DNA from: an uncultured bacterium
GTDB lineage: Bacteria > Patescibacteriota > Minisyncoccia > Phycocordibacterales > GWA1-40-21
Length of the DNA: 62,370 nt
Direction of reading: 5' to 3'
Assembly (NCBI GenBank): GCA_903822075.1
Contig: CAIJNK010000022.1
Span: forward strand, 1-62,370
Shown here piece by piece: positions 6,603 through 62,370 of this stretch. The first letter of the stretch is position 1. Each line of letters begins with the position of its first letter. The notes under the pieces were generated by a model, which was given only the letters and a program-made list of their open reading frames with translations, had not been told where the DNA came from and did no database searches. Made by a program: the position numbers and the translations under genes.

Positions 6603-7412
6603 TCAAATGGAAACTCCAAACACTCTTTTAGCGTTTTCCAACAGTTGCAGACGGACGATCTCAGGATCCTCACCCCTGATTTCAGCGATCTTTTTGTAAA
6701 CTTCAATAACATACGAGGGTAGGTTCCGCTCGCCACGGTGAGGCACTGGGGCCACGTAGGGGGCATCTGTTTCAGCTTGGAGACTAGTTAGAGGTACAGC
6801 CTTAATTATTTTATCAAAGTCCTGAACATAGGTAATAAGACCCACAAAAGAGATAGTAAAACCCAAATCAATGAATTTTTGCGCCATTTCCAGTTTCCCA
6901 GTAAAGAAATGAACATCGCCTCGAAAAGAACTTAAACCCCGTTCTTGTTTGATTTTATTCAATATTTCATATGCATCATTGAAGGCTCCACCCCTTACTT
7001 CCCCATCACGGATATGAAGCATGAGCGCTTTGTCATATTTCAGCGCAAATTTTATTTGATTGATAAAATCTTCCTTTTGTTTGGCTTTTATTTTCTCAAT
7101 ATCGCCTTCCAACTTATAATATTCTAACCCGCATTCCCCTATAGCTACCACTTTCGAATTTCTTACCAACTCCTCATAATTTTTCTCAGCAAAAATTTCA
7201 GCCAAATTATGATTTGGATGCAGACCAATGCAGGCCCAAATATCTTCATTCTCCGTGGCCACTTTTACGGCCTCTTTGGAGCTCTCCAAGTCCGCCCCAA
7301 TGGCAATGGTCCCTACCTCGGTCTCTTTCATCCGCTGTATCACTTCCTTTTTATCCGCGCCGTAGTCTTCAAAACCAAGGTGGGAATGGATATCAATGTA
7401 TTTTAGGTTCAT
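6603..7412 (-). CDS. tatD: TatD family DNase
   Basis: DIHSH, IGECGLEY, LHIRD, HFF, ETDAPY motifs. Confidence 0.95.
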   Translation of the reverse strand: MNLKYIDIHSHLGFEDYGADKKEVIQRMKETEVGTIAIGADLESSKEAVKVATENEDIWACIGLHPNHNLAEIFAEKNYEELVRNSKVVAIGECGLEYYKLEGDIEKIKAKQKEDFINQIKFALKYDKALMLHIRDGEVRGGAFNDAYEILNKIKQERGLSSFRGDVHFFTGKLEMAQKFIDLGFTISFVGLITYVQDFDKIIKAVPLTSLQAETDAPYVAPVPHRGERNLPSYVIEVYKKIAEIRGEDPEIVRLQLLENAKRVFGVSI

Positions 7413-7493
7413 TAACCCATTATAGCAAAAACCCCGGTTTTATGTATAATACGGTCTGTTCTTTAATGTCATAACCGAGAAAGGAGGGTAAAA

Positions 7494-7709
7494 GTGACAG
7501 AACTTATTCTTACATACTTACTTCTCAGTCGATTGTTCGGTTTCCGCTGGCAATTCATGGAAGCAAGGATTGACTGGCTCATAGAAAAGGTCAGGCGTGG
7601 ATGGACGAGCACGGAGAAGATAAAGTTAGTAGTAACGCTGGCTTTAGCCCTTGAACTTAGAATCCTGATTCACCGGAAAAATAGTATACTGCGGGAATAT
7701 CTGCGGTGA
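7494..7709 (+). CDS. Orphan hypothetical protein with own promoter, SD and terminator
   Basis: TGTATAAT 7443-7450, AAGGAGG SD, GTG start, terminator 7713-7740. Confidence 0.55.
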   Translation: MTELILTYLLLSRLFGFRWQFMEARIDWLIEKVRRGWTSTEKIKLVVTLALALELRILIHRKNSILREYLR

Positions 7710-17464: not shown

Positions 17465-18064
17465 TCAAGCCTTTCGTAGTCGCTTGATTTCCACCATTTC
17501 CTGCCTCATCTGATCCATTTCCAAAATAGTATTGAGAACGCTTGGGAGTTCTTTAATGTCCGCCTTGAAGTGACCTTTATTATGCTCCACAATAACTCCT
17601 GCGCCTACCTTGCTGGCGAAATCCAGAGTATCTTTGTTTGGGATGAGAGGATCGTTATCGGACAAAATAACCATTGCTTCCCTCATATGTTTCTTTACAG
17701 TAGAAAAATCCAGCGGTAGGGAGCAGAAGCCAACCAACAAGGGAATTTTGGGTAAGGAGTCGAAACCGGCCACAAAAACACAACCACCCGCAGAGGTCTT
17801 TCCCGGCAAGGTCGCCAAAAAACGAGCAATGGTAATGCAACCCAAACTGTGACCAATAAAATATGTATTCTTATTTACTTTAATTTTTTGGGCTTTCAAA
17901 AAATCTACCCACTGATGCACTTCCGGATACATAATATCCGGCATGGGCAAAATACTGAAATCAAAACCACATTTAATAAATTCACCTCTTAGCCACTCCG
18001 GCCAACCATCACCATCAACACCAGAAAAGCCTGGTACAAAAATCACTTTCTTTTGATTCCTCAT
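17465..18064 (-). CDS. RBBP9/YdeN family alpha/beta hydrolase
   Basis: IGHSLG nucleophile elbow, SDNDP, GHF; ATGA-coupled to ileS. Confidence 0.9.
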   Translation of the reverse strand: MRNQKKVIFVPGFSGVDGDGWPEWLRGEFIKCGFDFSILPMPDIMYPEVHQWVDFLKAQKIKVNKNTYFIGHSLGCITIARFLATLPGKTSAGGCVFVAGFDSLPKIPLLVGFCSLPLDFSTVKKHMREAMVILSDNDPLIPNKDTLDFASKVGAGVIVEHNKGHFKADIKELPSVLNTILEMDQMRQEMVEIKRLRKA

Positions 18065-21000
18065 TGATTTATTTTTAATTGGAAATCCATATCCTCCACT
18101 TTTACTGTTGTGCCGCCATCCGAATCTTCAAATGAGATATTTTTCAAAAGAGTCGTCTTCTTTATCTCAGTCTCAAATTTTTTGACCAGAGCCTGACCCT
18201 TTTGCTCGGTTCTTATTTTCAAACTGACGGCGTCGGAAGGATTCAACTTTTCCTGTTTGCGCAATTCCTGGATTGCACGAATGAGTTCGCGTACGTTTCC
18301 TTCCTCCTTAAGCTCCGGGGTAATATTCACATCGAGTTCTACCGCTTCGGGAATTGAAGTGTCAAAGGCTGCCTCTTTCACGTTTATTTCAGCCTTAATC
18401 AAGTCCTGATATTGTTCCAGATTATCTCCGCTCAACCTGGAATCTTTTATTTTCAATTTCAATAAAGGCTGACGGACTTTAATATTTGAACGGGAACGAG
18501 CCTCCAGGCCCAGGGTAACAATTTTTCGAACTTCCGCCATATCGGCGATTATTTTTTCCTCACCAGTCGACAGATGGACAGCTTCCGGCCAAATATCCAA
18601 ATGGACACTTTCCTTACCCTCAAAAGATTTTACTTTCTGATAAAGATCCTCAGCATAAAAAGGCATGACGGGAGCAATTATTTTGGCCAAACCTTCGAGG
18701 ACAAAGCGGGTTGTTTCAATAGCCTGAGTTTTGTCTTTCAGATCATCAGCCTTGAAGCGATCGCGAGAGCGGCGTAAATACCAAGTGGATAAATCATCCA
18801 CAAAATCGGCAATTGGCCGAGTAGCGCGGTCTAACTCGTACTTATCGGTTGCAACAGTCACTTCATAAATAAGTTTTTTAAACTTGGCCAGAACCCATTG
18901 GTCTAAAATATTCTCAGTAACGGGCGTAAAATTCTTCACCGGTGCCGAGCTGTTTTTGCTGTACATTTCATAGAACGAATAGACATTTTCCAAACGCATC
19001 AGGACTTTTTTCATGACTTCATCTACCCCTACCTCAGAGAAGCAAAAATCCTCTGCCTTGACCACCGGGGAGGATAATAAGTAGTAACGCAAGGCGTCGG
19101 CACCGTATTTATCCACCACGAGCATTGGGTCGGGATAATTTTTCAATCGCTTGGACATTTTCTGACCATCACCGGCCAGGACCGTTCCGTTAACAATGAC
19201 ATTTTTATAAGATGATTCTCCAAACAAAGCCACGGACAAAACAAGCATGGAATAAAACCAGCCGCGCGTCTGATCCAAGCCTTCACCAATGAATTCTGCC
19301 GGAAAACCGACAGGCTTTCGAAACATCCCGGGGTTAGGATTGAATTTGTCCAGATTCTCAAACGGGTAATGTGACTCGGCAAAAGGCATAGATCCACTTT
19401 CAAACCAGCAATCAAAAACCTCCGGCACACGCTTCATTTTTCCGCCACAATCACAATTCAAAACAACATCATCAATATAAGGACGATGCAAATCTAACTC
19501 ATAGTCGTGATTATGCGGAATCGGCGCAAATGGCATTTCTTTCACTTCGGAATTCTTTATAAAATCATGAGCCTGCTCTCTTAAAGTTATTGTTTCCTTT
19601 CGGCCAAACCCCATAATGCCAGCAAACATCAAACAAGCCGGGGTGTTGTGCGTGACAATTAAAATATTCTGACCTTGGTGTTTGGAATTGATATCATACA
19701 CAAATTCCGTCATGCGATTTTTAATTTGCGTGTAATTCTCTCCCCCTTTTGGGGCTTTATCAAATTTTTGAAGATCACTCTCAAACAATCTCTGGTATTC
19801 CGCATCTGGCCGCCCATCTAGCTCACCGCCGTATACTTCATGAATACGGTCGTCGGTAATTACCTTAACTGAATCAAAATTCAAAACACCCGCAATTATC
19901 TTGGCGGTCTCCTGTGTCCGGACAAAAGGCGAAACGTAAATATAATCTATTTTCTTCCCTTTTAATTTTTCCGCTGTTTCCTTGACCTGGACTATTCCCT
20001 TCTCGGTCAGATGATGGGGTTTTTTCGGATCCGAACTGATGATACCCAGAACATTGTTCTCCGCTTCACCATGACGGACGACGAAGAAATTATTCCGATT
20101 ACCTGATCGCTTTTTGATATCTTCTACCGAACTTATGAATTCTTTCTTAGCACATTGTTCACAACGCCAGACCGGTAATGGTGCTCCCCAATAACGGGAA
20201 CGGGAAATCGCCCAATCACGCGCGCCTTCGAGCCATTTACCGAATCTCCCCTCTTTGATATCACCCGGCACCCAATTTATTTTTTCATTAGCTTTCACCA
20301 GTTTGTCCCGGAACTTGGTCACCTCCACAAACCAGGAGGAGGCCGCGTAGTTTAGAAGCGGCGTATCACAACGCCAACAGTGCGGATAGGAGTGAATTAA
20401 TTTTTCCTTAGCGAAGAGAGTGCCGTGACCAGCCAAGTATTTGATAATCAAAATATCAGCACTCTGATGATCTATTCCCTCTGCCTTATCGTCTTTTGGT
20501 TTGACATCTAGGCCGGCAAAATCTTTTACTTCGGCCTTAAACTTGCCATTGGTACCCACATGCTGGATAAAAGGCAGTTTCATTTCCTTGCCTAAAGCCA
20601 TATCATCCTCACCAAAAGCCGGCGCAATGTGCACAATACCGGTACCATCTTCCATCGTCACAAAATTAGCACCATAAACCTTGAAACCATTCTCAATATT
20701 CTTGGTCTCCTGATTATTATAATAATCAAATACCGGGCGGTAAGATTTACCGATTATTTTCTCGCCTTTAAATTCCTCGGTGATAGCATAATTATCTTTT
20801 ATCACTGAAAGACGGGATTTGGCCAAAATATAATTATCCCCAGACGGCATGGCCTTTATTTTGACATAATCCACTTCTGGACCAACGGCTAGCGCCACAT
20901 TTCCGGGCAGTGTCCAAGGTGTGGTGGTCCAAGCTAGGAAATAAGTATTCTGTTCACCCACCACGGCAAATTTTACCGTGACAGAAATATCCGTGATGTC

Positions 21001-21594
21001 TTTGTAACCTTGATTCACTTCGAAATTTGACAACGTGGTCTCACAGCGCGGACACAAGTGCATGGATTTGAAACCTTCGTAGACCAAACCCTTCTCATTC
21101 AGCTTACTGAAAATCCACCAGACACTTTCTGTGAAAGACGAGTCCATAGTCTTGTAATCATTTTCCATATCGACAAACCGACCCATTCTTGGCACGATCT
21201 TTTTCCAGTCATCCACATAAGCCATCACGCTTTTTTTAGCTACGGCGTTAAATTTCTCTATGCCATAGTCTTCAATATCTTTCTTACTTTTCAGATTGAG
21301 CTCCTTCTCGACGATGTTTTCCACCGGCAAGCCATGGCAATCCCAACCCCAACGTCGGGGCACATGTTTACCTTGCATAGTCTGATAGCGACCAATATAG
21401 TCTTTGATCGTTCCAGCTAAGAGATGCCCGTAGTGGGGAGTACCAGTGGCAAAGGGCGGACCGTCGTAAAAAACGTATTCGCCTTTAGGCGCTTCCTTTT
21501 CAAGGCTTTTCTGGAAAATATTATTCTCCTCCCAGAATTTCTGCGTCTTTTCTTCCCGCTCGGCTATTAAACTTTTTTTGTTTTCCTCAGTCAT
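18061..21594 (-). CDS. ileS: Isoleucine--tRNA ligase (type II) with inserted histidine-phosphatase domain
   Basis: DGPPFATG.PHYGH, GWDCHGLP, WTTTPWTL, KMSKR; RHGE insert at about 19530-20100. Confidence 0.96.
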   Translation of the reverse strand: MTEENKKSLIAEREEKTQKFWEENNIFQKSLEKEAPKGEYVFYDGPPFATGTPHYGHLLAGTIKDYIGRYQTMQGKHVPRRWGWDCHGLPVENIVEKELNLKSKKDIEDYGIEKFNAVAKKSVMAYVDDWKKIVPRMGRFVDMENDYKTMDSSFTESVWWIFSKLNEKGLVYEGFKSMHLCPRCETTLSNFEVNQGYKDITDISVTVKFAVVGEQNTYFLAWTTTPWTLPGNVALAVGPEVDYVKIKAMPSGDNYILAKSRLSVIKDNYAITEEFKGEKIIGKSYRPVFDYYNNQETKNIENGFKVYGANFVTMEDGTGIVHIAPAFGEDDMALGKEMKLPFIQHVGTNGKFKAEVKDFAGLDVKPKDDKAEGIDHQSADILIIKYLAGHGTLFAKEKLIHSYPHCWRCDTPLLNYAASSWFVEVTKFRDKLVKANEKINWVPGDIKEGRFGKWLEGARDWAISRSRYWGAPLPVWRCEQCAKKEFISSVEDIKKRSGNRNNFFVVRHGEAENNVLGIISSDPKKPHHLTEKGIVQVKETAEKLKGKKIDYIYVSPFVRTQETAKIIAGVLNFDSVKVITDDRIHEVYGGELDGRPDAEYQRLFESDLQKFDKAPKGGENYTQIKNRMTEFVYDINSKHQGQNILIVTHNTPACLMFAGIMGFGRKETITLREQAHDFIKNSEVKEMPFAPIPHNHDYELDLHRPYIDDVVLNCDCGGKMKRVPEVFDCWFESGSMPFAESHYPFENLDKFNPNPGMFRKPVGFPAEFIGEGLDQTRGWFYSMLVLSVALFGESSYKNVIVNGTVLAGDGQKMSKRLKNYPDPMLVVDKYGADALRYYLLSSPVVKAEDFCFSEVGVDEVMKKVLMRLENVYSFYEMYSKNSSAPVKNFTPVTENILDQWVLAKFKKLIYEVTVATDKYELDRATRPIADFVDDLSTWYLRRSRDRFKADDLKDKTQAIETTRFVLEGLAKIIAPVMPFYAEDLYQKVKSFEGKESVHLDIWPEAVHLSTGEEKIIADMAEVRKIVTLGLEARSRSNIKVRQPLLKLKIKDSRLSGDNLEQYQDLIKAEINVKEAAFDTSIPEAVELDVNITPELKEEGNVRELIRAIQELRKQEKLNPSDAVSLKIRTEQKGQALVKKFETEIKKTTLLKNISFEDSDGGTTVKVEDMDFQLKINQ

Positions 21595-31879: not shown

Positions 31880-32506
31880 TTATTTTATTTTCCCCCGGAC
31901 TTCCTTTATATCGCCCAGAACTTCCTCGATAATATTCATAATCTTCGGCGTCAGGGCCTGTCCCAGACTCTTGGCGGTGCTGATTTGTAATTTGCGAATC
32001 TTGGCGCTGGTGGAAGTGGTGGCCATAGGCTCGAGAACAATCACTTCACCGCAATACTTTTTTAAGTCTTTCAGTTGTTCTTGGGTATAAGTTTCTTTGG
32101 TGGCTATCAACACATCCGGCTTGACCGTTTTAATCAAGTGCCACTTTGGGTGCTTCAATTCTTTTAAAACCACCACATCCACCGGCCGTAAGTGAGCGAC
32201 CATTTCCAACCGCTCTTGTTGCGGCACAACAGGCCTTTCTGGTCCCTTTCGCGCCCGAACTTTTTCATCACTATCCACACCAATCACCAGGATATCACCA
32301 TGTTTTTTTGCTTCTTCAAAATACCGAGCGTGCCCAATGTGGACCATATCGTAAGTCCCTTGAGTCAAGACGATTCTCAGACCAAGACCTTTGCAATGAC
32401 TAATGACTTCTGCCAAGTTCTTGTAATCGGAAATATACCGCTTATTAAAATTTGAGGCTTGTCCAAAAATAGACTTATCCAAGACGATGTTACTTTTTTC
32501 GGTCAT
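31880..32506 (-). CDS. Cytidylyl/adenylyltransferase family protein (RfaE domain II-like)
   Basis: QGTYDMVHIGH, IGVDSDE.VR..KGPERP, STSAKI. Confidence 0.9.
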   Translation of the reverse strand: MTEKSNIVLDKSIFGQASNFNKRYISDYKNLAEVISHCKGLGLRIVLTQGTYDMVHIGHARYFEEAKKHGDILVIGVDSDEKVRARKGPERPVVPQQERLEMVAHLRPVDVVVLKELKHPKWHLIKTVKPDVLIATKETYTQEQLKDLKKYCGEVIVLEPMATTSTSAKIRKLQISTAKSLGQALTPKIMNIIEEVLGDIKEVRGKIK

Positions 32507-32528
32507 AGGTCAATTTTACACCCGACTC

Positions 32529-32566
32529 AACAAAAAACAACCCTTGATAACGGGTTGTTTTTTGTT
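32529..32566. terminator. Bidirectional intrinsic terminator
   Basis: aacaaaaaacaaccc/gggttgttttttgtt. Confidence 0.8.
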
Positions 32567-32592
32567 TGTAATTTTATATTTTATGGTGAAAA

Positions 32593-32681
32593 TTATCCCT
32601 TTACTTCTACCCACACATACTTTTCTGCTGAAAAGTTGCGCCGGGCCCGCCTCGCATCGTCATGCTCCGGCCGATAGAAGT
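32593..32681 (-). repeat. Non-coding element at the rplK 3' end (antisense plus direct copy of the gene end around a C(AGCA)G hairpin)
   Basis: 32593-32612 matches 32682-32701 at 18/20; 32673-32681 is the reverse complement of 32692-32700; hairpin 32619-32636. Confidence 0.7.
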
Positions 32682-33107
32682 TTATCCCTTCACTTCTATC
32701 CCCATAGAACGGCAAGATCCCTCGATAATCTTCATGGCGGCATTAATATCGTTGGCATTTAAGTCCGGCATCTTCTTTTCGGCAATAGCCCTGACCTGTG
32801 CTTTAGTGATTGTTCCTGCCTTCTTAACCAGCTGCTTACCAGAACCACCCTCAACTCCAGCCGCCTTCAGGATCAAACCGGTTGCTGGCGGCGTCTTTAG
32901 CTTAAAATCATAGGTTCGGTCCTCGTAAACGGTAATTTCCACTGGAACAATATCCCCCATCATTTTCACGGTGGCGGCATTGAATTTCTGCACAAAATCA
33001 CCAATATTGATACCAGCCTGTCCCAGAGCCGGACCCACTGGCGGAGCCGGATTAGCTTTACCAGCGGGAATCTGCAACTTTAATTTTTTTGTTATTTTTT
33101 TTGCCAT
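32682..33107 (-). CDS. rplK: 50S ribosomal protein L11
   Basis: [36 protein letters not shown]. Confidence 0.98.
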
Positions 33108-50936: not shown

Positions 50937-50976
50937 ACGGCAATTGTATCAGATATTAAATTAAATAGATATTAAG

Positions 50977-51162
50977 GGGTGGCTACCGGGCAGTTTCCCT
51001 CGGCTAAAATTTTTTCGCCAAAAAATTTTCCCTGGGCACCGGCTCACCTATTTTTTCTGCTGAAAAAATTTGGCTCCGCCGTTCACCTCCCGGACGCAAG
51101 CAAAATCATTTGCTTGCTTAGCCACCCAAACAAAAAGACGCTCAGATGAGCGCTTTTTATTT
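50977..51162 (-). repeat. Non-coding element downstream of tRNA-His (split antisense copy plus direct copy of the tRNA 3' end, C(AGCA)G hairpin)
   Basis: 50977-50990 equals 51163-51176; 51081-51093 plus 51119-51130 reproduce the tRNA T-arm and acceptor in inverted orientation; hairpin 51050-51069. Confidence 0.75.
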
Positions 51163-51163
51163 G

Positions 51164-51235
51164 GGTGGCTACCGGGAGTTGAACCCGGACAGAGAGCTCC
51201 ACAAGCTCGCGTGCTACCGCTACACCATAGCCACC
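51164..51235 (-). tRNA. tRNA-His(GTG)
   Basis: G-1, acceptor GTGGCTA/TAGCCAC, C73, anticodon loop TT-GTG-GA, GTTCAAC T-loop. Confidence 0.93.
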
Positions 51236-53553: not shown

Positions 53554-53673
53554 ACTTCCTCCCTTCTATCTTGCAAAAGATAAAGATGGTGAATAGACAA
53601 AATTAACTTCAAAGAACCCACTGTCTAAAACAGTATCACATTAAACAAATAAAGTCAAATACTATTTCTTATG

Positions 53674-53757
53674 TGCCTGGGAGAGGACTTGAACCTCCAT
53701 GCCCGTAAGGGCGCTACCACCTCAAGGTAGTACGTCTACCAATTTCGCCACCCAGGC
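53674..53757 (-). tRNA. tRNA-Leu(GAG)
   Basis: GCCTGGG/CCCAGGC acceptor, CTACC-TT-GAG-GT-GGTAG, long variable arm, GTTCAAG. Confidence 0.95.
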
Positions 53758-54276: not shown

Positions 54277-54990
54277 TTATTTAAAGAAATCCACCGCCGC
54301 CTGGAAATCCACCGGATAAGGGGCAATTATCTTTATTAACTTACCTTCCGGTAATTCAAATTCGATAGAGTAAGCGTGCAGGGCCAGACGGGAAATATTC
54401 ACCGGAGACTTCTTGGCTACGCCATATAACCTGTCCCCAATAATCCCATGTCCTAAATCCGCAAAATGCACCCGAAGCTGATGTGTTCGTCCGGTCCGCG
54501 GGTTAGCCTCGATCAAAGAAATTTTTCCCTTCCGAGCCAAAGTTTTATAATGAGTCACGGCTTCTTTTTCTTCACCACGCACTGCCTTACCGGTGGCCTT
54601 TTTTCGAAAATCACTTTTATTGCGACCGATGGCCAGATTAATAATCCCTTCATCGTACCGCACGTCACCATACACCACCGCATGATAAGTTTTTTCTATC
54701 TCCCGATCCAAAAACTGCTTTTTTAAAAAGTCATAAGCTTTCTGATTCTTAGCCACCAAAACCACGCCGGAAGTTTCCCGGTCAATCCGATGCACTATTC
54801 CCCACCTTTTGATAATTTCCCCGGTGCCTATTTCCAAAGGTTCACCCACCTTCTCCGTGTCGGGATATTTTTCCTTAAGCCAATCCGTCAAAGCCGGCTC
54901 TTGGGTCCGCCCATCGGTATGTATCACAAGACCGCTCGGTTTATTCACCGCCAATAGATTACTGTCTTCATATAGAATCGGGATATCCAT
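54277..54990 (-). CDS. RluA/RluD family pseudouridine synthase
   Basis: VNKPSGL, HRIDRETSG, TGRTHQLRVH, IIGD.LYG, LHAY. Confidence 0.95.
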   Translation of the reverse strand: MDIPILYEDSNLLAVNKPSGLVIHTDGRTQEPALTDWLKEKYPDTEKVGEPLEIGTGEIIKRWGIVHRIDRETSGVVLVAKNQKAYDFLKKQFLDREIEKTYHAVVYGDVRYDEGIINLAIGRNKSDFRKKATGKAVRGEEKEAVTHYKTLARKGKISLIEANPRTGRTHQLRVHFADLGHGIIGDRLYGVAKKSPVNISRLALHAYSIEFELPEGKLIKIIAPYPVDFQAAVDFFK

Positions 54991-55001
54991 AATTTTATTC
55001 G

Positions 55002-55074
55002 TGGGCGATACAGGACTCGAACCTGTGACATCTTCAGTGTAAATGAAGCGCTCTACCAACTGAGCTAATCGCCC
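55002..55074 (-). tRNA. tRNA-Val(TAC)
   Basis: GGGCGAT/ATCGCCC, CTTCA-TT-TAC-AC-TGAAG, GTTCGAG. Confidence 0.96.
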
Positions 55075-55078
55075 ATTG

Positions 55079-55150
55079 TGCCCTCGGTAGGAATCGAACC
55101 TACATCAAAACCTTAGAAGAGTTCTGTTCTATCCATTGAACTACGAGGGC
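55079..55150 (-). tRNA. tRNA-Arg(TCT)
   Basis: GCCCTCG/CGAGGGC, GAACT-CT-TCT-AA-GGTTT, GTTCGAT; 4-nt spacer to tRNA-Val. Confidence 0.95.
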
Positions 55151-55546: not shown

Positions 55547-56083
55547 TTATTTTTTCAGTTTAGCCACCGAAAAATCCAAATCGGCTGACCATACTTTATC
55601 TGAACTAACGCTAAAAGTAACGCTGTTTATGGTTGATATAACCGGTAAATTCTCGATGGCCTGCAGAAAATTAGAGATATTATTCCACGAGCCGGAAATA
55701 CTGAATCGATACCTGATGGCGGAGACCACATCGGATGAACCAAGCTCACTTATGGCTTCATAAGCCAGAGTCTTTTTCTGGGTCACTTTATTTTGTAAGG
55801 CCAGATCTTCCAAGTATTTGGTAAAATTCAAAGTTTCAACATCACCGGCCGCCACAAAATAACCAATAAGCTTTTCCCGATCGTCCTTTGAACTCGCAAT
55901 GGAGGACTTTAAACTTACTTCTCTGGCTCTCTCTTGGGTGGAGATATCCCACTGCTTGACTTTGTCATTGATACTCATAATTCTGCCTAAAAGCAGATCT
56001 GTAAAAATAACGTCCAAAACTAAGACACCGATCAAAACAACGGTAGAAAAGATAAGTACTTTTTTCGAATAATTTATTTTCAT
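55547..56083 (-). CDS. PilO-like protein
   Basis: TM, coiled coil, then ferredoxin-like G.W..I..FL..IENLP. Confidence 0.65.
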   Translation of the reverse strand: MKINYSKKVLIFSTVVLIGVLVLDVIFTDLLLGRIMSINDKVKQWDISTQERAREVSLKSSIASSKDDREKLIGYFVAAGDVETLNFTKYLEDLALQNKVTQKKTLAYEAISELGSSDVVSAIRYRFSISGSWNNISNFLQAIENLPVISTINSVTFSVSSDKVWSADLDFSVAKLKK

Positions 56084-56625
56084 AACGTGGTTTTAATATT
56101 TAAAGTGAAAGGGATATCACGATCATTGGCATAGTCTGAAACCGGATAATCCACGCTCGCAAATCCCGCCTTGGACCGCAGATCTTCGATAAAGGTCACC
56201 AATCCTTCACGGTTCTTGGAAACACCGCCAACGACGATCAGTGCCACTCCGGCTTTTTGAAGACTGAAAGAATAATTGGTCAGACGGATACTGCTGTTTT
56301 TATTTTCAATCACCTTCGAAAAATATGTCGACGGGGTGACTTGGCTGCCGTTATACAACTCTTCCACCTTTAATTCGTCCAGTGTCTCCGCCACTACTTG
56401 GGTAGCACTCTCACCAACATTTTCTTTATTCTCCACGTTAATAGCATTTTTAAATGATTCGGCGGCCTGGTTATCTTTTTCGCTCACGGAAAAATAATAA
56501 GGTACAACATATGCCAAAAGAAAACTGCCTAGTAAGGAAAGAACGAGGAGAGAAAGAGCACAGAGTCGGATAAAATAATCCAGTCTTATCCCCTTTTTTT
56601 GTTTTGTGGTAATTAAATTTGCCAT
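56080..56625 (-). CDS. PilN-like protein
   Basis: TM, then I.V.GVSKNREGLV.FIE.L; located between pilM and pilO-like genes. Confidence 0.65.
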   Translation of the reverse strand: MANLITTKQKKGIRLDYFIRLCALSLLVLSLLGSFLLAYVVPYYFSVSEKDNQAAESFKNAINVENKENVGESATQVVAETLDELKVEELYNGSQVTPSTYFSKVIENKNSSIRLTNYSFSLQKAGVALIVVGGVSKNREGLVTFIEDLRSKAGFASVDYPVSDYANDRDIPFTLNIKTTL

Positions 56626-56628
56626 TGT

Positions 56629-57693
56629 TTAAAACAAGCTTAGACCATTTACCGCCGCCAGATCGAGTGAATCCAACTTGTTGATCTCCGGAACATAATC
56701 ACGCAAATCAAAATTGTTTACCCAGATATTGCCAACTTCCACGTTCATATTCAAATTTAAGGATAGATATTTGTCAAAACCGACGATCATTGCATCTCGT
56801 CCGCACAAGATAATCCTGTCTACCTGAGTATCCACATCTTCGCGCTCATTACAGTAAGAAATAAACTTATAAATTTCATCTTTAATGGCGGAAATAGTAT
56901 TGATCAAATAGGAAAATATTTCCATGTTGTCAGGATTCTCGCTATAAAGTTTTTCTCTCTTTATTTTTAAAGCCTCTTCCGGTGAAACCTTAAAATATTT
57001 GGCCAACAAATCAGTGAATGTTGAACTACCAAAATTCAAAGAGGAGGTCTGGCACACCACACCATATACCGCCAAAGACAAAATAATGTTTGACTCCCTA
57101 ATACTAACCAGCACAACCACCTGTTCATTACCTTCACGTACCACCGCTTTTGCCACATTGTTTGACTCTGGACTGAAAAAAATCGGAGTTAAGCCGGCTG
57201 ATTCAAAAAGATTCTGTAATTCTTCCACGAGCTTGAGAGAGGTCACGGAGACCACTACCTCTAACCCATTTTTATGACTTGGACTAGGCACAACATCATA
57301 ATCAAAAACTGCTTCTTTGGCTGACAGAGGAACGTTTTCTTCAATTTTAAAGTCCAAAATATCTCGGACTTCTTTAGCGCTGAGATCCGGCAAATGAGTC
57401 TTAAAAATATAAGTTTTTTCTTCCGGAATCGAAAAACGGACAAAGCTGACATTGGTTTTTTTTCGGATTTCGTAAAGAGCCTTCAGCACTGGCTCCTTCC
57501 TAATGATTTCCCCTTGTGCCATCGTACCGGCCGGTAATGGCAACCAACCATGAACGTTGGGCAATAAGCCTTTTTCTGTGCTTTTATTTAGTAAAAAATA
57601 GACACCCTCGGGTAATATTTCCAAGGAAACAGACGGCATTTCTAAAAATTTGGGTGGCGTAAATAATTTTGAATATTGTGCTTTATGAGACAT
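56629..57693 (-). CDS. pilM: Type IV pilus assembly protein PilM
   Basis: Actin-like fold motifs (IE..VPL...EA.FDY, GSSTFT, IILCG); operon context. Confidence 0.8.
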   Translation of the reverse strand: MSHKAQYSKLFTPPKFLEMPSVSLEILPEGVYFLLNKSTEKGLLPNVHGWLPLPAGTMAQGEIIRKEPVLKALYEIRKKTNVSFVRFSIPEEKTYIFKTHLPDLSAKEVRDILDFKIEENVPLSAKEAVFDYDVVPSPSHKNGLEVVVSVTSLKLVEELQNLFESAGLTPIFFSPESNNVAKAVVREGNEQVVVLVSIRESNIILSLAVYGVVCQTSSLNFGSSTFTDLLAKYFKVSPEEALKIKREKLYSENPDNMEIFSYLINTISAIKDEIYKFISYCNEREDVDTQVDRIILCGRDAMIVGFDKYLSLNLNMNVEVGNIWVNNFDLRDYVPEINKLDSLDLAAVNGLSLF

Positions 57694-57749
57694 GGCTTTA
57701 TCTCCGAACATTATAGCACACCGTTTAATCCATTAACAAAGTAAAATAA

Positions 57750-60700
57750 TCACCGGCACCCCAACGCCCCCTTGGCCGCCCCCACCTTGCTCTGGGGGAT
57801 CACATCAATGGTAATCAAAAGATCGATGAATTGGCAGACGGACGGGGCTGGAGCAGTTGAGGCTTCCTGCTTCAGGATACTATTCACATACTTGATGGAA
57901 CCCAGACCAAAGACACCGGTGCCTTTGGTGACACCGGCCGGTTTCAGGATGTTCGTGTAGTGAGCATTCTGGAAGCGGATGAGAGCGAGTCTGGTGGCAT
58001 CATTGAAGTAAGCGGTTTCGTGAGAGGGAGAACTGGTGCCGGTCTTGGCAATGATGAAGCCGTGGGTGTTCAGGAAGATTTGGAGATATTTCACGTCTGG
58101 GTCCGTAGTGTAAGGGTTTAGGATATGGGTGAAGAGGAAGAGGGGGGTGCTGGCACCTGGGGTGGAAGTGGCAGTGATGAGAGGTGAAGTTGAGGTGGCC
58201 AGAGTGCAGGCTTGAGTGGTGGTGGCCACGGTGGAGCAGTTGGTGGGGGTTTTGGTGAGGACTAAACGGGTTTGAAGGGTGGAGGTGGCGGTGCAGGGAG
58301 ACCAGGGGGAATAGGTGATGGCAGAGCAGACAGGGGGTGGCGGAGTACCGCCACCTCCTCCACCTCCGATGTAAGGAGGAACATATGTGCAGGATTGGGA
58401 TAAAACAGGAGTGCCTCCGGTGCAACCGGAGGGAGAGGAAGTGACTACGGTGTGGGTTTGAGTTCCCGAAACAGGACAAACGGCCGGTGACCAAGCGGTG
58501 TAGGTGAAGGAGGTGCAGGTGGGAGGACCTGGTGGCGGAGTGGTTGTGTATTCGTAGGCGCCGATGTCCCAAGGAACATTCCGAGTAATCCCATCTTTAT
58601 CTTTTGTAAAAGAGACTGATAAATTTAATCCGACGTCTTTCAAGGGGCTTATGGATTGAAGATGATAATCTTGCGATAAAACATTCACAAACTTCGGGTC
58701 ACCTCCATTTATCGAGGGAGAACCTTCGGTAAAATAGGCCGTGCTTTTTGTGGTATATGAGGGACCCCCGCAATAATTATTCGAAGCGGTTAACCCCGAA
58801 GCATTATTAGTTGCGTAACATCCCTTATCAGTATGTGTTGGCTCGTCCCCGCAATTGAGGAAAACATTATTTTTCACCTCGACCCCAGTTGAATGAGAAC
58901 CGAACGAAATAGCGTTAGAACTGAATGTTCTCGTAGTGCCAAACAAATAATACATATACCCGACTGTATCAAAAACGTTGTTATAAATTTTAAGATTACT
59001 AAAGGCTTGTCCGTTATCTTGTGACATTAATCCAACTCTATAAAAAATATTATTTCTAAAAACAATATTATCTACGACCGTGCCCTGCGGCTGGCAAATA
59101 TTATTTCCATACCACACCTGCACCTTGGCGTCGTGAACATAATTGCCTTCTATGAGAATATTCCTAACGTCGTACGAGGTAGCGCAAGCGTTATCATTGG
59201 TAAACCATTGCACAAAATCGCCATGATTACGATCCACATTGGCATCTTTATCCATATTCTTCACTTCATTAAAAGAAATTATGTGATTGGTGCCATGAAC
59301 TCTAAACGCATCAGTATCTTTGCAATCTTTAATTATACTATGTGTGACCGTTACACTATCTGTCCCCAATCCGTCCCGTCTGTCGGCCTCGCCCACAGAC
59401 ACAGCATAAGTATCGTCAATATTTTGCACGGTTGAACCAGTCATTAAATCATGGTCTCCAAACAGGCTGATTCCTTCCAAATCAGTAATATTATGCCCGT
59501 CTATAGTGCTCCCATTAATAATCAGGTGATCGCTGCACCTATTCGCGTAAAGAATACTATATGAAGAATTTGAAGCGCTGCCAATGATAAGATTATTGAG
59601 AATTACATATGACGCACAGTTTGTATGATTGTCGGATGAGCCAATAAATATCTGCTTTACATAAACGTCCCCACTTCCTGTAAATGTTATCGGATTTCCG
59701 GCTGTCCCCGAATGAGTCACAGTAACAGTCTCATCATAAGTCCCGGCATAAATCAAACAAGTCTGGCCGGAGGTTACGGCATTTGCGCAAGCCTGAACTG
59801 TTGTATATGTATTTAGAACAGAATTAGAGACAGATATAAGCTCAACTTTTTTAGCAGTAAAATTCGCGGTGATGGTTTTGTTTCCGTTCATAGTGACGGT
59901 TATGGGATTGGTGGTGCCGGTTGCGTCACCGGTCCAGTTGAGGAAGGTGTAACCTGTGCTTGGATTGGCGGTAATAGTGACGGAGGTGCCTGAGTCGTAA
60001 GTGGCTTGGTCGGGAGACTTGGTGACGGTGCCGTTTGTTGCCGGGGTGGAGAGGGTGTAAGAGACAACATTCATACACGTGGCTGAACAAGTGTCACCCG
60101 GGGTGCCGTTATGGGCGGTGCCGTGGTCGCATTGTTCTTGGATTTGGGTGGCGGGTTCGAATTTGAAGGCGTCGGCGAAGACGTAGCCGTCGGTGGCGCT
60201 TGTGGTTTGGACTAGGGAATATTCGTCGCCTAAACCATTAAAGTCGTAGGTGCCGATTTGGTTCCATTGTCCGCCGTTGGTGGATTCGTTGAAGGTGACC
60301 GGTGTGGTGGTTCCGCTGTGTTTGATGACAATCGGGACTTGGGTGGCTCCGGGGTAAGTGCTGTCTCCTTGAGGATACCAAATGGAAACCTTGTAGCTTC
60401 CGGCGGCTGTGAGATTGGGATTAAACTTTACAGTCTTTGTTCCTTTGCCCGTGTTACCGTCATGAAGGTAGTTGGTACTGTACATTGTTGTGGAGAAATA
60501 TGTTGAGGGTGTCCAGCCTGTGGAGATATCGCCAGATGGGATGTTGGTGTTGTCTACAATGGTGGGAGCAACTGTGTCTTGGTTAACAACTCCATCTCCA
60601 CAATATGATGGTTGAGGGTCAATGAGGGAAAGAGGATGAGGGTAGACGTAGGGGGTGTAATAGGCGGTCCAGGTGTCGGGAGCGGTGCATTTGTATAATG

Positions 60701-62370
60701 TGCCTTTTATTGGAGTGGTTGGATTAGCTCCAACATTGGCGTCGTCAACGCCGGCACAGTTTTGATCGGTGGCCCAATAGCCGACACCAGTGGTGCAAGT
60801 GGGAGGCATGTCGGCTTGGTGACCACAACCGATGCCAGTGGTGCCGTCGAAAGAAGGCTTCTGGTTGTAAAATTGGCTATTTTCCGATAAAACCTTACAA
60901 CAATCTGATATAATTTTATATTTAGACGTGTTATCTGGGTCAGTGCTCCAATTGTTATTTACCGTCACTCTTGTATCAGTAACTGATGAAATTTGTTCAG
61001 TTTGTCCAGCGCCAGTACCATCATAAATATTTAATCCGTACGTAGTTGGGAATGAATTAGAAAAAGAACCAGAAAAGTTTTGTGTGCTATCATCTAAATA
61101 ATTATCACCTCCACCGGTTGCAGAACCGCTTAATGGAACAAATAATGCGCCCAAAATGGGTGTAGTAGTGTTTTTTCTGTTATTCCAATAATAAGTGTCA
61201 TGAATATGCTGAGGTTCTAAACTTGTCGTAGGGTTATCAGAATCTGTCCATTCTTCTCTTACTTGCATAGAAGTATTTCCAGTCGTGACAATATTATTAC
61301 CGAATACTAATGTTTTTCCGCCTCTTTGATCTAATAAATCAACCTTATTCGAACCAGATTGAACTAAATTACCATAAATTTCTCCTCCGAAGCATGACCA
61401 CATGCTCGCACCAGGATTTGAGCTATAATGATTGCCGTGCATATCAAATAAAGGACTGGCATTAACCGGCATCACAATAGTATTGTATCTATAAGCATAT
61501 CTTCCTGAATATTGGCAATCTTCAACCACACCGGATGAAACGCCGGAAAAATTATTATCCTCGTAGTAAAGATTGTCGTTGGCGCCAAATGTAAAAGTAA
61601 AATTATCCCAAAAAGAAGAGTTTCCGATTCCTGCATCGCTACGCGCCGGATACGCAATATTTTCGAAATTACAGTTATCAACGACGCCAAACATTCTGGC
61701 ATGACTAAAAATTGCGTTATGAGATTGAGTTGGGGCATTTAAAAAATGTATATGATCAATTCTTATTCCGGTTTGAATTGTAAATGGGGCATCCCTACCT
61801 CCAACCCCCAATGATATTCCCGAAGACTCATCACCAAAATCCATAGTTAAGCCCGTAACTCTAAAGGGTTTATTTGCGGAATAATTTAAAGGTTCATAGG
61901 TAATAAAATAAAATCCACCCGCGCCGGCAGTTAAAATAGTATTACCAATTCCTAATCCTTTTAATAGAATTCCTTTATTAATTGTAACACCGCTGTTCCA
62001 CGTGCAATTCCCCGCCGGGACCACCACGATGTCGCCGTCGGAGGCGGAGTCGATGGCGGTTTGGACGGCGGGTTGCTCGCAGGAGGTGGCGACAATGGTG
62101 TGGCCGGTGACGCACTGGGTGGTGTTGTAGCTTTTGCAGTCGGAGTTGCAGGTGAGGGTGCCCGAGACAAAGCCGGCAGCGACGGTGGAGCAAGTGTAGT
62201 TGTTGACGCCTTCGGAAGCGTTGGTGTCGCTTCCATCACAAGCTTCACCGGGGTCCACCTTGCCGTTACCACAGGAAGGCAAGGGGTCGTTATTGGTGAA
62301 AGGAGTGCTGGTGACCGTGTCGGCAAAGGAAAGCTCTGGTCTGGGGAGAGTGAAGTTCTCATGTTTGGCG
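57750..62370 (-). CDS. Giant secreted surface protein (5'-partial): Cys-rich repeats, two right-handed beta-helix domains, golvesin-like domain, InlB-B/Flg_new repeat, choice-of-anchor-Q-like motif, peptidoglycan-binding tail
   Basis: Frame open to the window end; CGNGKVDPGEACD; GGQWNQIG.Y.F..FADAF; GYTFLNWTGD; DYHLQS.SP..D.G..WDIGAYE; C-terminus similar to 409..4203. Confidence 0.8.
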   Translation of the reverse strand, partial: AKHENFTLPRPELSFADTVTSTPFTNNDPLPSCGNGKVDPGEACDGSDTNASEGVNNYTCSTVAAGFVSGTLTCNSDCKSYNTTQCVTGHTIVATSCEQPAVQTAIDSASDGDIVVVPAGNCTWNSGVTINKGILLKGLGIGNTILTAGAGGFYFITYEPLNYSANKPFRVTGLTMDFGDESSGISLGVGGRDAPFTIQTGIRIDHIHFLNAPTQSHNAIFSHARMFGVVDNCNFENIAYPARSDAGIGNSSFWDNFTFTFGANDNLYYEDNNFSGVSSGVVEDCQYSGRYAYRYNTIVMPVNASPLFDMHGNHYSSNPGASMWSCFGGEIYGNLVQSGSNKVDLLDQRGGKTLVFGNNIVTTGNTSMQVREEWTDSDNPTTSLEPQHIHDTYYWNNRKNTTTPILGALFVPLSGSATGGGDNYLDDSTQNFSGSFSNSFPTTYGLNIYDGTGAGQTEQISSVTDTRVTVNNNWSTDPDNTSKYKIISDCCKVLSENSQFYNQKPSFDGTTGIGCGHQADMPPTCTTGVGYWATDQNCAGVDDANVGANPTTPIKGTLYKCTAPDTWTAYYTPYVYPHPLSLIDPQPSYCGDGVVNQDTVAPTIVDNTNIPSGDISTGWTPSTYFSTTMYSTNYLHDGNTGKGTKTVKFNPNLTAAGSYKVSIWYPQGDSTYPGATQVPIVIKHSGTTTPVTFNESTNGGQWNQIGTYDFNGLGDEYSLVQTTSATDGYVFADAFKFEPATQIQEQCDHGTAHNGTPGDTCSATCMNVVSYTLSTPATNGTVTKSPDQATYDSGTSVTITANPSTGYTFLNWTGDATGTTNPITVTMNGNKTITANFTAKKVELISVSNSVLNTYTTVQACANAVTSGQTCLIYAGTYDETVTVTHSGTAGNPITFTGSGDVYVKQIFIGSSDNHTNCASYVILNNLIIGSASNSSYSILYANRCSDHLIINGSTIDGHNITDLEGISLFGDHDLMTGSTVQNIDDTYAVSVGEADRRDGLGTDSVTVTHSIIKDCKDTDAFRVHGTNHIISFNEVKNMDKDANVDRNHGDFVQWFTNDNACATSYDVRNILIEGNYVHDAKVQVWYGNNICQPQGTVVDNIVFRNNIFYRVGLMSQDNGQAFSNLKIYNNVFDTVGYMYYLFGTTRTFSSNAISFGSHSTGVEVKNNVFLNCGDEPTHTDKGCYATNNASGLTASNNYCGGPSYTTKSTAYFTEGSPSINGGDPKFVNVLSQDYHLQSISPLKDVGLNLSVSFTKDKDGITRNVPWDIGAYEYTTTPPPGPPTCTSFTYTAWSPAVCPVSGTQTHTVVTSSPSGCTGGTPVLSQSCTYVPPYIGGGGGGGTPPPPVCSAITYSPWSPCTATSTLQTRLVLTKTPTNCSTVATTTQACTLATSTSPLITATSTPGASTPLFLFTHILNPYTTDPDVKYLQIFLNTHGFIIAKTGTSSPSHETAYFNDATRLALIRFQNAHYTNILKPAGVTKGTGVFGLGSIKYVNSILKQEASTAPAPSVCQFIDLLITIDVIPQSKVGAAKGALGCR

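Follow-up and report, generated by a model that had tools for sequence, protein, structure and literature searches.

Why should the end of a ribosomal protein gene be present twice, once in the gene itself and again a short distance downstream, with an antisense copy and hairpins in between? The question is raised by rplK, the gene of ribosomal protein L11, in a 62,370-nucleotide contig (the window) from an uncultured bacterium of the Patescibacteriota; a related arrangement is found at the tRNA-His gene of the same contig. The rplK arrangement belongs to a family, here called family A, whose units are inserted inside gene ends, carry their own copy of the gene end together with its antisense, have their exchange point at the boundary between their last helix (P3) and the gene-end copy (X), adopt a structure specific to one strand and have no linked protein gene. 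Taken as a whole, the reading that we consider probable is that of a miniature mobile element devoid of protein genes, which brings a replacement gene end and is inserted as a single strand, under catalysis in trans, at sites designated by its own X/X' hairpin.

The end of rplK is duplicated around a hairpin unit

Coordinates at the rplK locus are read on the minus strand (Table 1). The identity of the gene is supported by the Pfam Ribosomal_L11_N/L11 domains detected in the identical gene of loci L138-L141 (L numbers designate the loci used for comparison). The gene ends with GGG GAT AGA AGT GAA GGG ATA A, corresponding to codons ATA GAA GTG AAG GGA TAA. Its stop codon is followed, in order, by ACTTCTATC, G, GCCGGAGCATGACGATGCGAGGC, GGG, CCCGGCGCA-ACTTTTC-AGCA-GAAAAGT-A-TGTGTGGG, GTAGAAGTAAAGGGATAA, TTTTCACC... 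and a terminator. GATAGAAGT, in the gene, and ACTTCTATC form a perfect 9-nt inverted repeat, while GTAGAAGTAAAGGGATAA matches the rplK end ATAGAAGTGAAGGGATAA at 18 of the last 20 nt, in a direct repeat that extends to 23 of 28. The original prediction had pointed to this antisense match, to GGCGGGCCC, to the 7-bp hairpin ACTTTTC-AGCA-GAAAAGT (inside 32610-32645) and to the 18/20 copy of the last codons, and all of them are present. The repeats also withstand the shuffle test that it had proposed: among 20,000 dinucleotide-preserving shuffles of the downstream 110 nt, 38 contained a perfect inverted match of at least 9 nt, none a direct match of at least 18/20, and none both together. The 116-nt region folds with -39.7 kcal/mol (z = -4.6; 0 of 200 shuffles as stable). 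The exact hairpin tip TTTTCAGCAGAAAA occurs at two places in the window, the rplK end and downstream of tRNA-His.

Read 5' to 3', the unit has the order X1-loop-X'-P2-GGG-P3, and X2, the native gene end that it has displaced, follows directly. In X1, the element carries its private version of the final ca 15-20 nt of the target gene, with the stop codon or, for a tRNA, the 3' end. The antisense of X1 is X', and these two arms form hairpin P1. In other species, compensatory versions of the two arms are found (ACTTCCACC/GGTGGAAGT, ACGTCCACC/GGTGGACGT and others). Across the family, X' forms 9-14 contiguous pairs with X1 and 5-9 with X2. Units measure 75-200 nt and encode no protein. In the window, the last G of P3 is also the first base of X2. 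According to the model, the last 5-6 rplK codons and the stop codon lie within the inserted unit, which would extend from about 32611 to 32699 and leave the displaced original end at 32593-32610. The left boundary, placed by reference to the trpS insertions described below (L135 and L142), may shift by a few nt either way within the repeat.

Mechanically called open reading frames of 40-91 aa cross the element and the orphan gene end (32487-32762 (+), 32593-32715 (-) and 32459-32677 (+)). These frames are in all likelihood spurious, with a risk of being annotated as genes by mistake.

Empty and occupied sites in related genomes

The window was compared with 80 rplK loci of Patescibacteria (66-97% identity over the best segment), picked for RplK similarity alone and blind to the element. 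By its RplK relatives, the bacterium of the window is assigned to the Paceibacteria (Patescibacteria/CPR). In the closest relatives, L004 (RplK 97% identical) and L001 (94%), the site is empty: the stop codon leads directly to a homologous spacer and terminator, with which X2 is continuous in the window. L003 (89%) carries the same element, with an antisense arm whose changes match those of the gene end at that locus (GGTGGAAGT/ACTTCCACC) and a compensatory change in the P2 hairpin (GCAT..ATGC to GGCT..AGCC). The alignment of rplK downstream regions proposed in the original prediction thus shows both states of the site. It also disposes of the suggestion that the element takes the place of rplA, since relatives without the element (L001, L004) likewise run from rplK to the terminator. 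Overall, six of the 80 loci have core A, three have another core, B, in the same architecture, and two (L020 and L070) retain degenerate remnants with deletions.

A search with an exact P3-hairpin pattern retrieved 57 loci among 185,579 representative genomes, nearly all labelled Patescibacteria or unclassified "bacterium". Several genomes contain 3-4 copies, four being the maximum. Covariance model R1 gave 82 matches in the loci examined, including divergent copies where the P3 stem is fully replaced and the AGCA loop kept. It scores 77-97 bits on independent copies (L003, L028, L037, L039, L048, L069) and 90 bits on the window copy (32597-32690), which was part of the seed alignment. The family A pattern had no match in a viral collection; the only match of the pattern for family T, described below, is a chance one, in a phage contig of high GC content that has neither a tRNA nor the architecture of the family. 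Two further patterns, a too-specific A/His hybrid and a His-type one, each gave no match in genome contigs. The rplK locus of the window is the same in four independently assembled contigs, and two further records agree by their gene tables alone. Family A is one conserved element family confined to Patescibacteria; together with family T it amounts to more than 100 copies.

Between species, the core is 85-88% identical and the adjacent gene DNA 60-73%. Spread by homologous recombination using a long rplK anchor is not supported, as gene DNA beside near-identical cores has no elevated identity and trpS offers no such anchor.

The imported gene end is upstream and the native one downstream

Two insertions in trpS, encoding tryptophanyl-tRNA synthetase (TrpRS), distinguish the imported end from the native one. 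In L135, the end of trpS bears a family A unit with an X1-loop-X' of rplK type (GGGGTGGAAGTGAAATAA-GAA-ACTTCCACC), and TrpRS ends with the rplK-type VGVEVK-stop. After P3, X2 reads TGGAAATTTAA (...GTGGAAATTTAA) and encodes VEI-stop. The closest TrpRS homolog (P0002, 95% identical) ends with VGVEI-stop and its locus, L144, is an empty site; most other listed homologs have related ends, such as VGVEIY or VGVDIY. The more distant trpS locus L142 has an X1-loop-X' identical to that of L135, followed after P3 by GTTGATTTGACAGAAAAAAAGAAATAA, which encodes VDLTEKKK-stop and agrees with the VGVDLT... ends of its relatives. These ends and the empty-site homolog show that the element imports X1 and X', and that the native end is X2, downstream. 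Moreover, the exchange point can be narrowed from the two junctions to GGGT at one locus and to (G)TGGAA at the other. Exchange therefore takes place at the P3/X boundary, between the final base of P3 and the base that opens X.

At rplK, ends encoding VR-stop (GTGCGCTAA or GTGCGTTGA, with CGCAC in X') are seen solely with an element or a remnant, and in L012 X1 encodes VDVK-stop and X2 VEVKG-stop. L135 and L142 display what is used to recognise integrase-type insertions, namely a gene 3' end restored by the element with the native end left as a direct repeat. The displaced X2 lies ca 90 nt downstream, before the native terminator, and decays there. The earlier idea of an element that targets the 3' ends of conserved genes without disrupting them stands, with one correction: insertion occurs inside the gene, 15-20 nt before its end, and not after it, the downstream copy being the displaced original, as seen at trpS.

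A covarying structure specific to the gene-sense strand

The consensus structure of family A was derived with RNAalifold from 39 copies, complemented by explicit pair counting. It consists of P2a (3 bp, GNC/GN'C, covarying), a GGA opposite GA internal loop, P2b, a 3-nt joiner that is mostly GGG, and P3. For P2a pair 26/51, the counts are CG:29 UA:5 AU:4 GC:1. All four pairs of P2b covary, below a loop that is mostly GACG, and pairs of P3 also covary (CG/GC, CG/UA). Within P3, pair 60/88 is predominantly G.U (34/39) and pair 62/86 alternates between G.U and G-C. Paired cells amount to 92.6%, versus 79.9% in column shuffles and 33-46% in slid controls; double-change cells number 147, versus 44 in shuffles. 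The G.U-rich covariation indicates that the structure forms on the gene-sense strand only, which excludes a palindromic site for a protein bound to double-stranded DNA. X' and X2 can in addition close both hairpins into a three-way junction (78% paired).

At gathering thresholds, Rfam 15 recognised tRNA, rRNA and RNase P alone in the window and in 28 loci with A, B or T copies, and an E-value scan of the rplK element region gave chance-level matches on the terminator alone. The structure, strongly covarying and previously unannotated, is absent from Rfam. The GGA/GA loop of P2 has 3x2 nt, versus the 3-nt bulge and tandem G.A of a K-turn. A hammerhead reading of P2 (CUGACGAG...) was ruled out, since loop and stem vary freely.

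A sister family at tRNA genes

The element at tRNA-His is detected by R1 through its hairpin tip alone (13 bits). Comparison with a tRNA-Tyr-linked element in L114 led to a search pattern for a second family, T, matching 49 loci, almost all from Patescibacteria and including at least one chance match (L182). A same-strand tRNA end is located 58-312 nt upstream in about 39 of 43 evaluable loci (within 260 nt in 38), and 11 tRNA identities are represented. X2 begins at R57 in the T loop and extends as far as the 3' end of the tRNA. The consensus contains 28 pairs, 19 of which show compensatory changes. Family T units have an additional hairpin, Pa, which interrupts the antisense arm, and their P1 loop frequently holds either a conserved motif of ACGAAGTGA type or, as is the case in the window, a hairpin resembling a terminator. 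The split arm X'a-Pa-X'b was also considered as a degenerate duplicate of the tRNA 5' half; this was rejected, as X'b continues the T-loop complement and Pa is unlike an anticodon arm.

A covariance model, R2, was built from 42 tRNA-linked copies, excluding the window. Its next best match in the whole window after the tRNA-His element is the rplK element and, reciprocally, the next best match of R1 is the tRNA-His element. R1 also detects T copies (L181, 22.7 bits; L160, 19.8 bits; also L176, L188, L152) and R2 detects A copies (L105, 26.8 bits, E 6e-6; also L087, L128, L121, L131, L048). Both families have a GNC-GGA...GA-GNC motif, a G-rich joiner and CCC/GGG at the base of P3, and both use GACG and AGCA loops, swapped between the two hairpins. 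This reciprocal detection and these common motifs identify A and T as sister families. The rplK and tRNA-His elements, taken in the original prediction for two copies of one element, are accordingly related at the superfamily level but represent two subfamilies.

P1 loops without a terminator (L153, L156, L161, L162, L186, L187, L189) contain a recurring (G/A)ACGAAG(T/C)GA(A/G). As this motif recurs across tRNAs and genomes, the loop belongs to the element. In one Kaiserbacteria genome (MFKY01), T copies are mosaic, L161 and L172 having near-identical P2, L172 and L156 near-identical P3, a pattern suggestive of sequence exchange, by recombination or gene conversion, among copies located at different tRNA genes. 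The other three tRNA genes of the window, Leu-gag (53673-53757), Val-tac (55001-55074) and Arg-tct (55078-55150), have no element in the flanks inspected (53554-53672 and 54990-55001). Occupancy is thus partial even within one genome.

Table 1. Positions of the features discussed, in the window unless a locus is named
Feature	Position	Strand	Basis or remark
rplK (ribosomal protein L11), 141 aa	32682..33107	-	Open reading frame listing; stop codon 32682-32684
Inserted family A unit, predicted extent (X1, loop, X', P2, J, P3; 89 nt)	32611..32699	-	R1 90 bits; empty sites L001, L004
X1 stem arm GATAGAAGT (rplK codons G-I-E-V), 5' strand of hairpin P1	32692..32700	-	9/9 complementary inverted repeat
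P1 loop GAAGGGATAA, with last rplK codons and stop codon	32682..32691	-	Sequence, fold
X' ACTTCTATC, antisense arm (putative guide)	32673..32681	-	Complementary to X1; to X2 with one G.U
P2, GCC-GGA-G[CAU GACG AUG]C-GA-GGC: helix P2a, GGA/GA internal loop, hairpin P2b (GACG loop)	32649..32671	-	RNAalifold, pair counts
P3, 8 bp, bulged A, 7 bp, AGCA loop (CCCGGCGCA ACUUUUC AGCA GAAAAGU A UGUGUGGG)	32610..32645	-	Covariation
X2 GTAGAAGTAAAGGGATAA (VEVKG-stop), orphan copy of rplK end	32593..32610	-	Direct repeat
Native intrinsic terminator of rplK, 15-bp stem	32529..32566	-	Kept in relatives without element
Family T element at tRNA-His	50976..51178	-	R2 92.1 bits, E 1.5e-27 on 50986-51100
tRNA-His gene	51163-51234		
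tRNA-His element, X1 (tRNA 3' end)	51163-51178		
tRNA-His element, terminator-like distal part of P1	51128-51162		Terminator-like site 51138-51153
tRNA-His element, X'a	51119-51127		
tRNA-His element, hairpin Pa	51096-51118		
tRNA-His element, X'b	51081-51093		
tRNA-His element, P2 with GGA/GA loop and AGCA hairpin	51041-51080		
tRNA-His element, P3	50996-51038		
tRNA-His element, X2	50976-50995		
Core B at rplK end	L006:3423-3520, L012:3423-3525, L071:3423-3520, L118:5620-5740	-	
Array loci	L110:5343-5540, L117:3000-3130, L118:5410-5740, L094:5100-5380, L112:137-384		

Targets, arrays and atypical copies

Family A occupies rplK (about 35 copies), rplL (L100, where the protein is clearly L7/L12), trpS (L135, L142) and tRNA genes (L087, L094, L105, L112, L114, L128, L131 and others), and is also found in promoter regions and between convergent repeats. 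Flanks derived from the target, as first suspected from two loci, are the rule across rplK, rplL, trpS and at least 11 tRNA identities. The expectation that other copies would also be flanked by gene-end duplicates is borne out in most of them and fails in a minority, the long-arm intergenic copies, which have no gene-end copy upstream. There are about two dozen of these, with X'/X2 arms of 12-25 bp; three in one genome have identical arms. They resemble a circularly permuted version of this three-helix unit. The occurrence of the same core at tRNA genes rules out a mimic of the L11-binding rRNA site used for autoregulation.

Core B (...ACCTTTTGAG-hairpin-CCAAAAGGTGTACTGCNCCTGTAAGGN) is unrelated to A and is found at exactly the same rplK-end position, in the same X1-loop-X'-core-X2 order. 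It is also nested between P2 and P3 of family A units (L102, L119, L132, L142). Head-to-tail arrays of 2-3 units behind a single gene end are of A-A (L110), A-B (L117), B-A-B (L118) and A-T-T types. In L118, a 45-nt block comprising X, X' and the start of B is duplicated around the A unit.

In L123 (3541-3745), a family A unit is located upstream of a complete tRNA gene and downstream of an apparent orphan 5' part of that tRNA. It may be an insertion of opposite polarity, or at an anticodon-stem sublocation. In L093, a long-arm family A unit is found in the P2 region of a ca 540-nt intervening sequence (7100-7640 (-)) of the 23S rRNA gene, near the junction of GGGTTCAGA and CGTGAGACAG. By inspection alone, the intervening sequence looks group-I-like, on account of a terminal G and of a P1-like pairing that includes U.G; it received no Rfam call.

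A possible insertion mechanism

In the scheme that we favour, a target would be picked by identity or complementarity of the X/X' hairpin with ca 8-9 nt of the target. We infer this type of targeting because the trpS sites share just 8-9 nt with X. Strand exchange would follow at the P3/X boundary. The conserved structure would act in single-stranded form, on the gene-sense strand and most likely as DNA. The candidate enzyme would act in trans, in a reaction resembling the peel-and-paste of IS200/IS605 or the single-strand integration of attC sites and CTX phage. A single guide, X', may serve to recognise X1, at the 5' end of the element, as well as X2, in the flank. On excision, the native gene would be restored, with a predicted junction of ...TCTATGGG with GTAGAAGTAAAGGGATAATTTTCACC, and the circular junction would join the 3' end of P3 to X1 (...GTATGTGTGG with ATAGAAGTGAAGGG), recreating the P3-X boundary. 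A target of the unit would carry GGGGTAGAAGTAAAGGGATAA. Repeated insertion could then produce the tandem and nested arrays.

That the single strand is DNA is an option to which we give slightly less than even credence. Canonical, high-scoring cores are found behind an intrinsic terminator in the P1 loop (L133, L069, L039 and the tRNA-His copy of the window), which argues against a need for co-transcription. From the plus-strand GC skew of -0.12, the sense strand would be the lagging-strand template. These two points, together with genomic insertions without a reverse transcriptase in sight, favour DNA over RNA.

A bolder proposal, which we regard as tentative and rather unlikely, is a minimal guided insertion system. 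Here, a single-stranded scaffold of ca 60-110 nt (P2/P3) would be programmed by X' (9-16 nt) for its site; the reaction would depend on an enzyme in trans, possibly a housekeeping one, or be self-catalytic, and the unit would carry a spare copy of its target, which would allow essential genes to survive.

Several observations weigh against a mobile element of this kind. Pfam scans of 58 of the 62 window open reading frames of at least 90 aa showed no transposase, integrase or reverse transcriptase; only housekeeping, pilus and cell-surface genes were recognised. Likewise, all-against-all clustering of 1,250 open reading frames from 57 loci revealed no recurrent protein family beside non-rplK copies, the conserved rplK neighbourhood being the sole recurrence. 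The six near-identical contigs recovered (two of them as gene tables only), from eight on record for the identical NusG, all have the filled spacing, and no empty/filled polymorphism within a species was seen. A search of metagenome contigs for the empty allele of the window's rplK locus gave no match, and no excised circle was seen. At the window locus, comparison with L001 and L004 leaves open which copy is native, and the conserved structure is compatible with RNA or single-stranded DNA, two alternatives that sequence cannot separate. Long-arm copies have no X1. The tRNA copies are all arm-matched to their own target, which import of old arms, as seen at trpS, does not by itself explain. 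Finally, the mosaic cores within one genome may mean that part of the similarity comes from gene conversion between old copies and not from recent transposition.

Comparison with known mobile elements

Integrative elements at tRNA genes, and streptococcal integrative and conjugative elements at rplL, are known to restore the gene end and to leave the original one displaced as an orphan. Phages, integrative and conjugative elements and islands that use a tyrosine integrase resemble families A and T in that they insert inside the 3' end of a conserved gene, carry a replacement end and leave an orphan direct repeat which, at tRNAs, starts in the T loop. They measure kilobases, whereas A/T units have 75-200 nt, no integrase and no cargo; in all copies inspected, X1 and X2 are 75-260 nt apart, with no recombinase gene or cargo between attL and attR. 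A/T units further differ by the antisense target copy X', by their single-strand core and by the many unrelated targets used by each core family.

IS200/IS605 elements and their non-autonomous derivatives, the palindrome-associated transposable elements, transpose by single-strand "peel and paste" (PMC5027513). As in these elements, the A/T arrangement is strand-specific and hairpin-based, without classical terminal inverted repeats or target-site duplications; a short internal guide by a hairpin could pair with the cleavage or target site, and the sense strand is the lagging-strand template. The guide is, however, 9-16 nt long versus 4-5 nt, and recognition concerns a sequence located 3' of the insertion point and also present at the element's 5' end. 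IS200/IS605 insert 3' of a conserved 4-5-nt target and have subterminal hairpins at both ends; here the target is 9-16 nt and varies by locus, and the hairpins have no demonstrated similarity to IS200/IS605 ends. No TnpA (Y1 HUH) was found in the window reading frames scanned or near copies.

In integron attC sites and the CTX-phage attP hairpin recombined by XerCD, as would be the case here, a hairpin of one strand mimics the duplex of a recombination partner, structure and extrahelical bases are conserved over sequence, exchange is near the stem base and orientation is strand-specific. Unlike these sites, A/T units have no conserved G-TT/AAC core or dif-like site, target gene ends instead of attI or dif, and have a hairpin stem that copies each individual target. 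By inspection, attC R''/R' boxes (RYYYAAC / GTTRRRY) with exchange between G and TT were not found: X varies (GTAGAAGT, GTGGAAGT, GTCGACGT, GAATCC...) and TT is not conserved.

Group I and group II introns also have an internal antisense that pairs with exon sequence beside the insertion point (internal guide sequence in P1/P10, or exon- and intron-binding sites). Nevertheless, A/T units are too small for a ribozyme core and have neither a splice-site U.G nor an omega-G; their pairing is downstream of the insertion, and splicing is unneeded as an in-frame end is supplied. In the 89-nt rplK unit, P1 is all Watson-Crick, without the U.G at a 5' splice site, the terminal G and the P3-P9 core of group I introns, and Rfam intron models, including Intron_gpI, gave no match.

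Miniature inverted-repeat transposable elements (MITEs), REP/BIME, Correia and RPE elements are likewise small, multicopy and non-coding, with strong hairpin potential, arrays and nesting. The A/T units differ by gene-end replacement, target-derived arms and a covarying multi-helix core; where MITEs have fixed terminal inverted repeats and a short target-site duplication, A/T arms derive from the target and differ by locus, and X1 and X2 did not arise by duplication at insertion. TIGR-Tas guide arrays, known from parasitic bacteria, consist of tandem non-overlapping spacers with box C/D flanks (PMC12045711). Compared by description, TIGR-Tas and the IS110 bridge RNA were rejected, as X' and X2 are fully complementary and no associated protein, such as an adjacent Nop-domain or DEDD protein, was found in the window reading frames scanned or near copies.

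The restoration of tRNA and ribosomal protein gene 3' ends by integrase-borne elements is thus already known. With respect to Rfam 15 and to the literature searches made, in which no description of the element was found, the novelty resides in a combination of features: units of 89-200 nt devoid of protein genes, an antisense arm derived from the target, a covarying single-strand scaffold of which at least three core types exist, and an occurrence in Patescibacteria only.

Alternative explanations

An unlikely alternative is a host-beneficial cis-acting RNA, a 3'-untranslated or trailer structure of rplK mRNA and tRNA precursors involved in processing, stability, termination or protein binding, or a small ribozyme, which would have spread by duplication and gene conversion instead of transposition. 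It would account for a strong, strand-specific and G.U-rich covariation in gene orientation, for a core better conserved than the adjacent gene DNA, for the mosaic cores and for the alternation of X' between X1 and X2, reminiscent of a structural switch; in addition, the window element follows the rplK stop codon, precedes the native terminator and is thus co-transcribed. However, a useful RNA fits poorly with a patchy distribution, with empty sites in the closest relatives, degenerate remnants and tandem or nested arrays, and with off-target insertions that change the C-terminus of TrpRS. Many copies stand behind an intrinsic terminator inside P1 and still have canonical cores, others are in promoter regions, between convergent repeats or inside the 23S rRNA intervening sequence, and no Rfam family matches.

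We consider it improbable that the units are scars of integrase-mediated elements, where a tyrosine recombinase would have crossed attP with attB at the rplK or tRNA 3' end and the interior been lost, leaving an attL/attR remnant like that of cis-mobilizable elements (CIME). Such events are classically recognised by a restored gene end and a displaced orphan end, the inferred crossover region is just a few bp, and the family T repeat starts at R57 in the T loop, a known crossover sublocation. Yet more than 100 independent scars would need a common 60-110-nt core with RNA-like covariation and predominant G.U, and this counts against scars because double-stranded protein-binding arms do not require it. 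Furthermore, none of ca 190 loci has an integrase or cargo between X1 and X2, the viral collection contains no true match, and the same core is found at unrelated targets (rplK, rplL, 11 tRNA identities) that a sequence-specific integrase could not recognise. Even less probable is a MITE- or retroposon-like insertion just after the gene, with X1 native and X2 a long target-site duplication made by staggered cuts. The 15-20-nt direct repeats around the core would agree with it, as would the long-arm copies, which resemble terminal-inverted-repeat elements and of which three share the same arms in one genome. But at trpS, X1 and X2 differ in sequence, length and residues as expected for an imported X1, the empty-site homolog agrees with X2 and not with X1 (L012 and the loci with VR ends behave likewise), and the antisense copy X' is left unexplained. 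Nothing but the shortness of the repeats speaks for an assembly artefact or a chance match, the probability of which is negligible given the shuffles, the four independently assembled contigs and the homologous copies in more than 100 genomes. Two other candidates were discarded: a diversity-generating retroelement (variable and template repeats), in view of repeats of insufficient length, of differences that are not confined to adenines and of the lack of a reverse transcriptase, and a retron.

Other genes of the window

In the window, rplK is followed by a cytidylyltransferase-like gene (31880-32506) and not by rplA, as also observed in L138-L141 and in L001. Since L001 has no element, the absence of rplA characterises the lineage and does not result from the insertion. 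Loss of L1 is a known trait of some Parcubacteria. Elsewhere, the 1177-aa isoleucyl-tRNA synthetase (18061-21594 (-)) contains a complete His_Phos_1 (histidine-phosphatase) domain at ca 504-667, inside its catalytic domain. Proteins of 1264 and 1510 aa (409-4203 (+) and 57750-62282 (-)) have Golvesin_C and peptidoglycan-binding domains, and type IV pilus genes (PilM, PilO-like) are found at 55547-57711.

Biological implications

If the proposal of a mobile element inserted through its own gene-end hairpin is true, families A and T would be among the smallest site-specific mobile elements known. Within a streamlined genome, they would have colonised the genes under the strongest conservation (rplK, rplL, trpS and at least 11 tRNA identities) and left them functional, because each element brings a replacement gene end. 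Such replacement rewrites protein C-termini, from VEI-stop to VEVK-stop in TrpRS and from K-stop to R-stop in L11, and the orphan gene-end fragments left by the element confuse annotation.

A target-derived antisense arm, a single-strand scaffold and the absence of a linked protein together point to a guide-directed enzyme in trans or to a catalytic nucleic acid. Should the guided system be real, its target would be reprogrammable by changing X and X' alone; the elements would then form a novel class, whose A, T and B cores would be separate scaffolds put to the same use. More generally, the family offers a handle on gene flow and recombination in Patescibacteria, where genetic tools are scarce.

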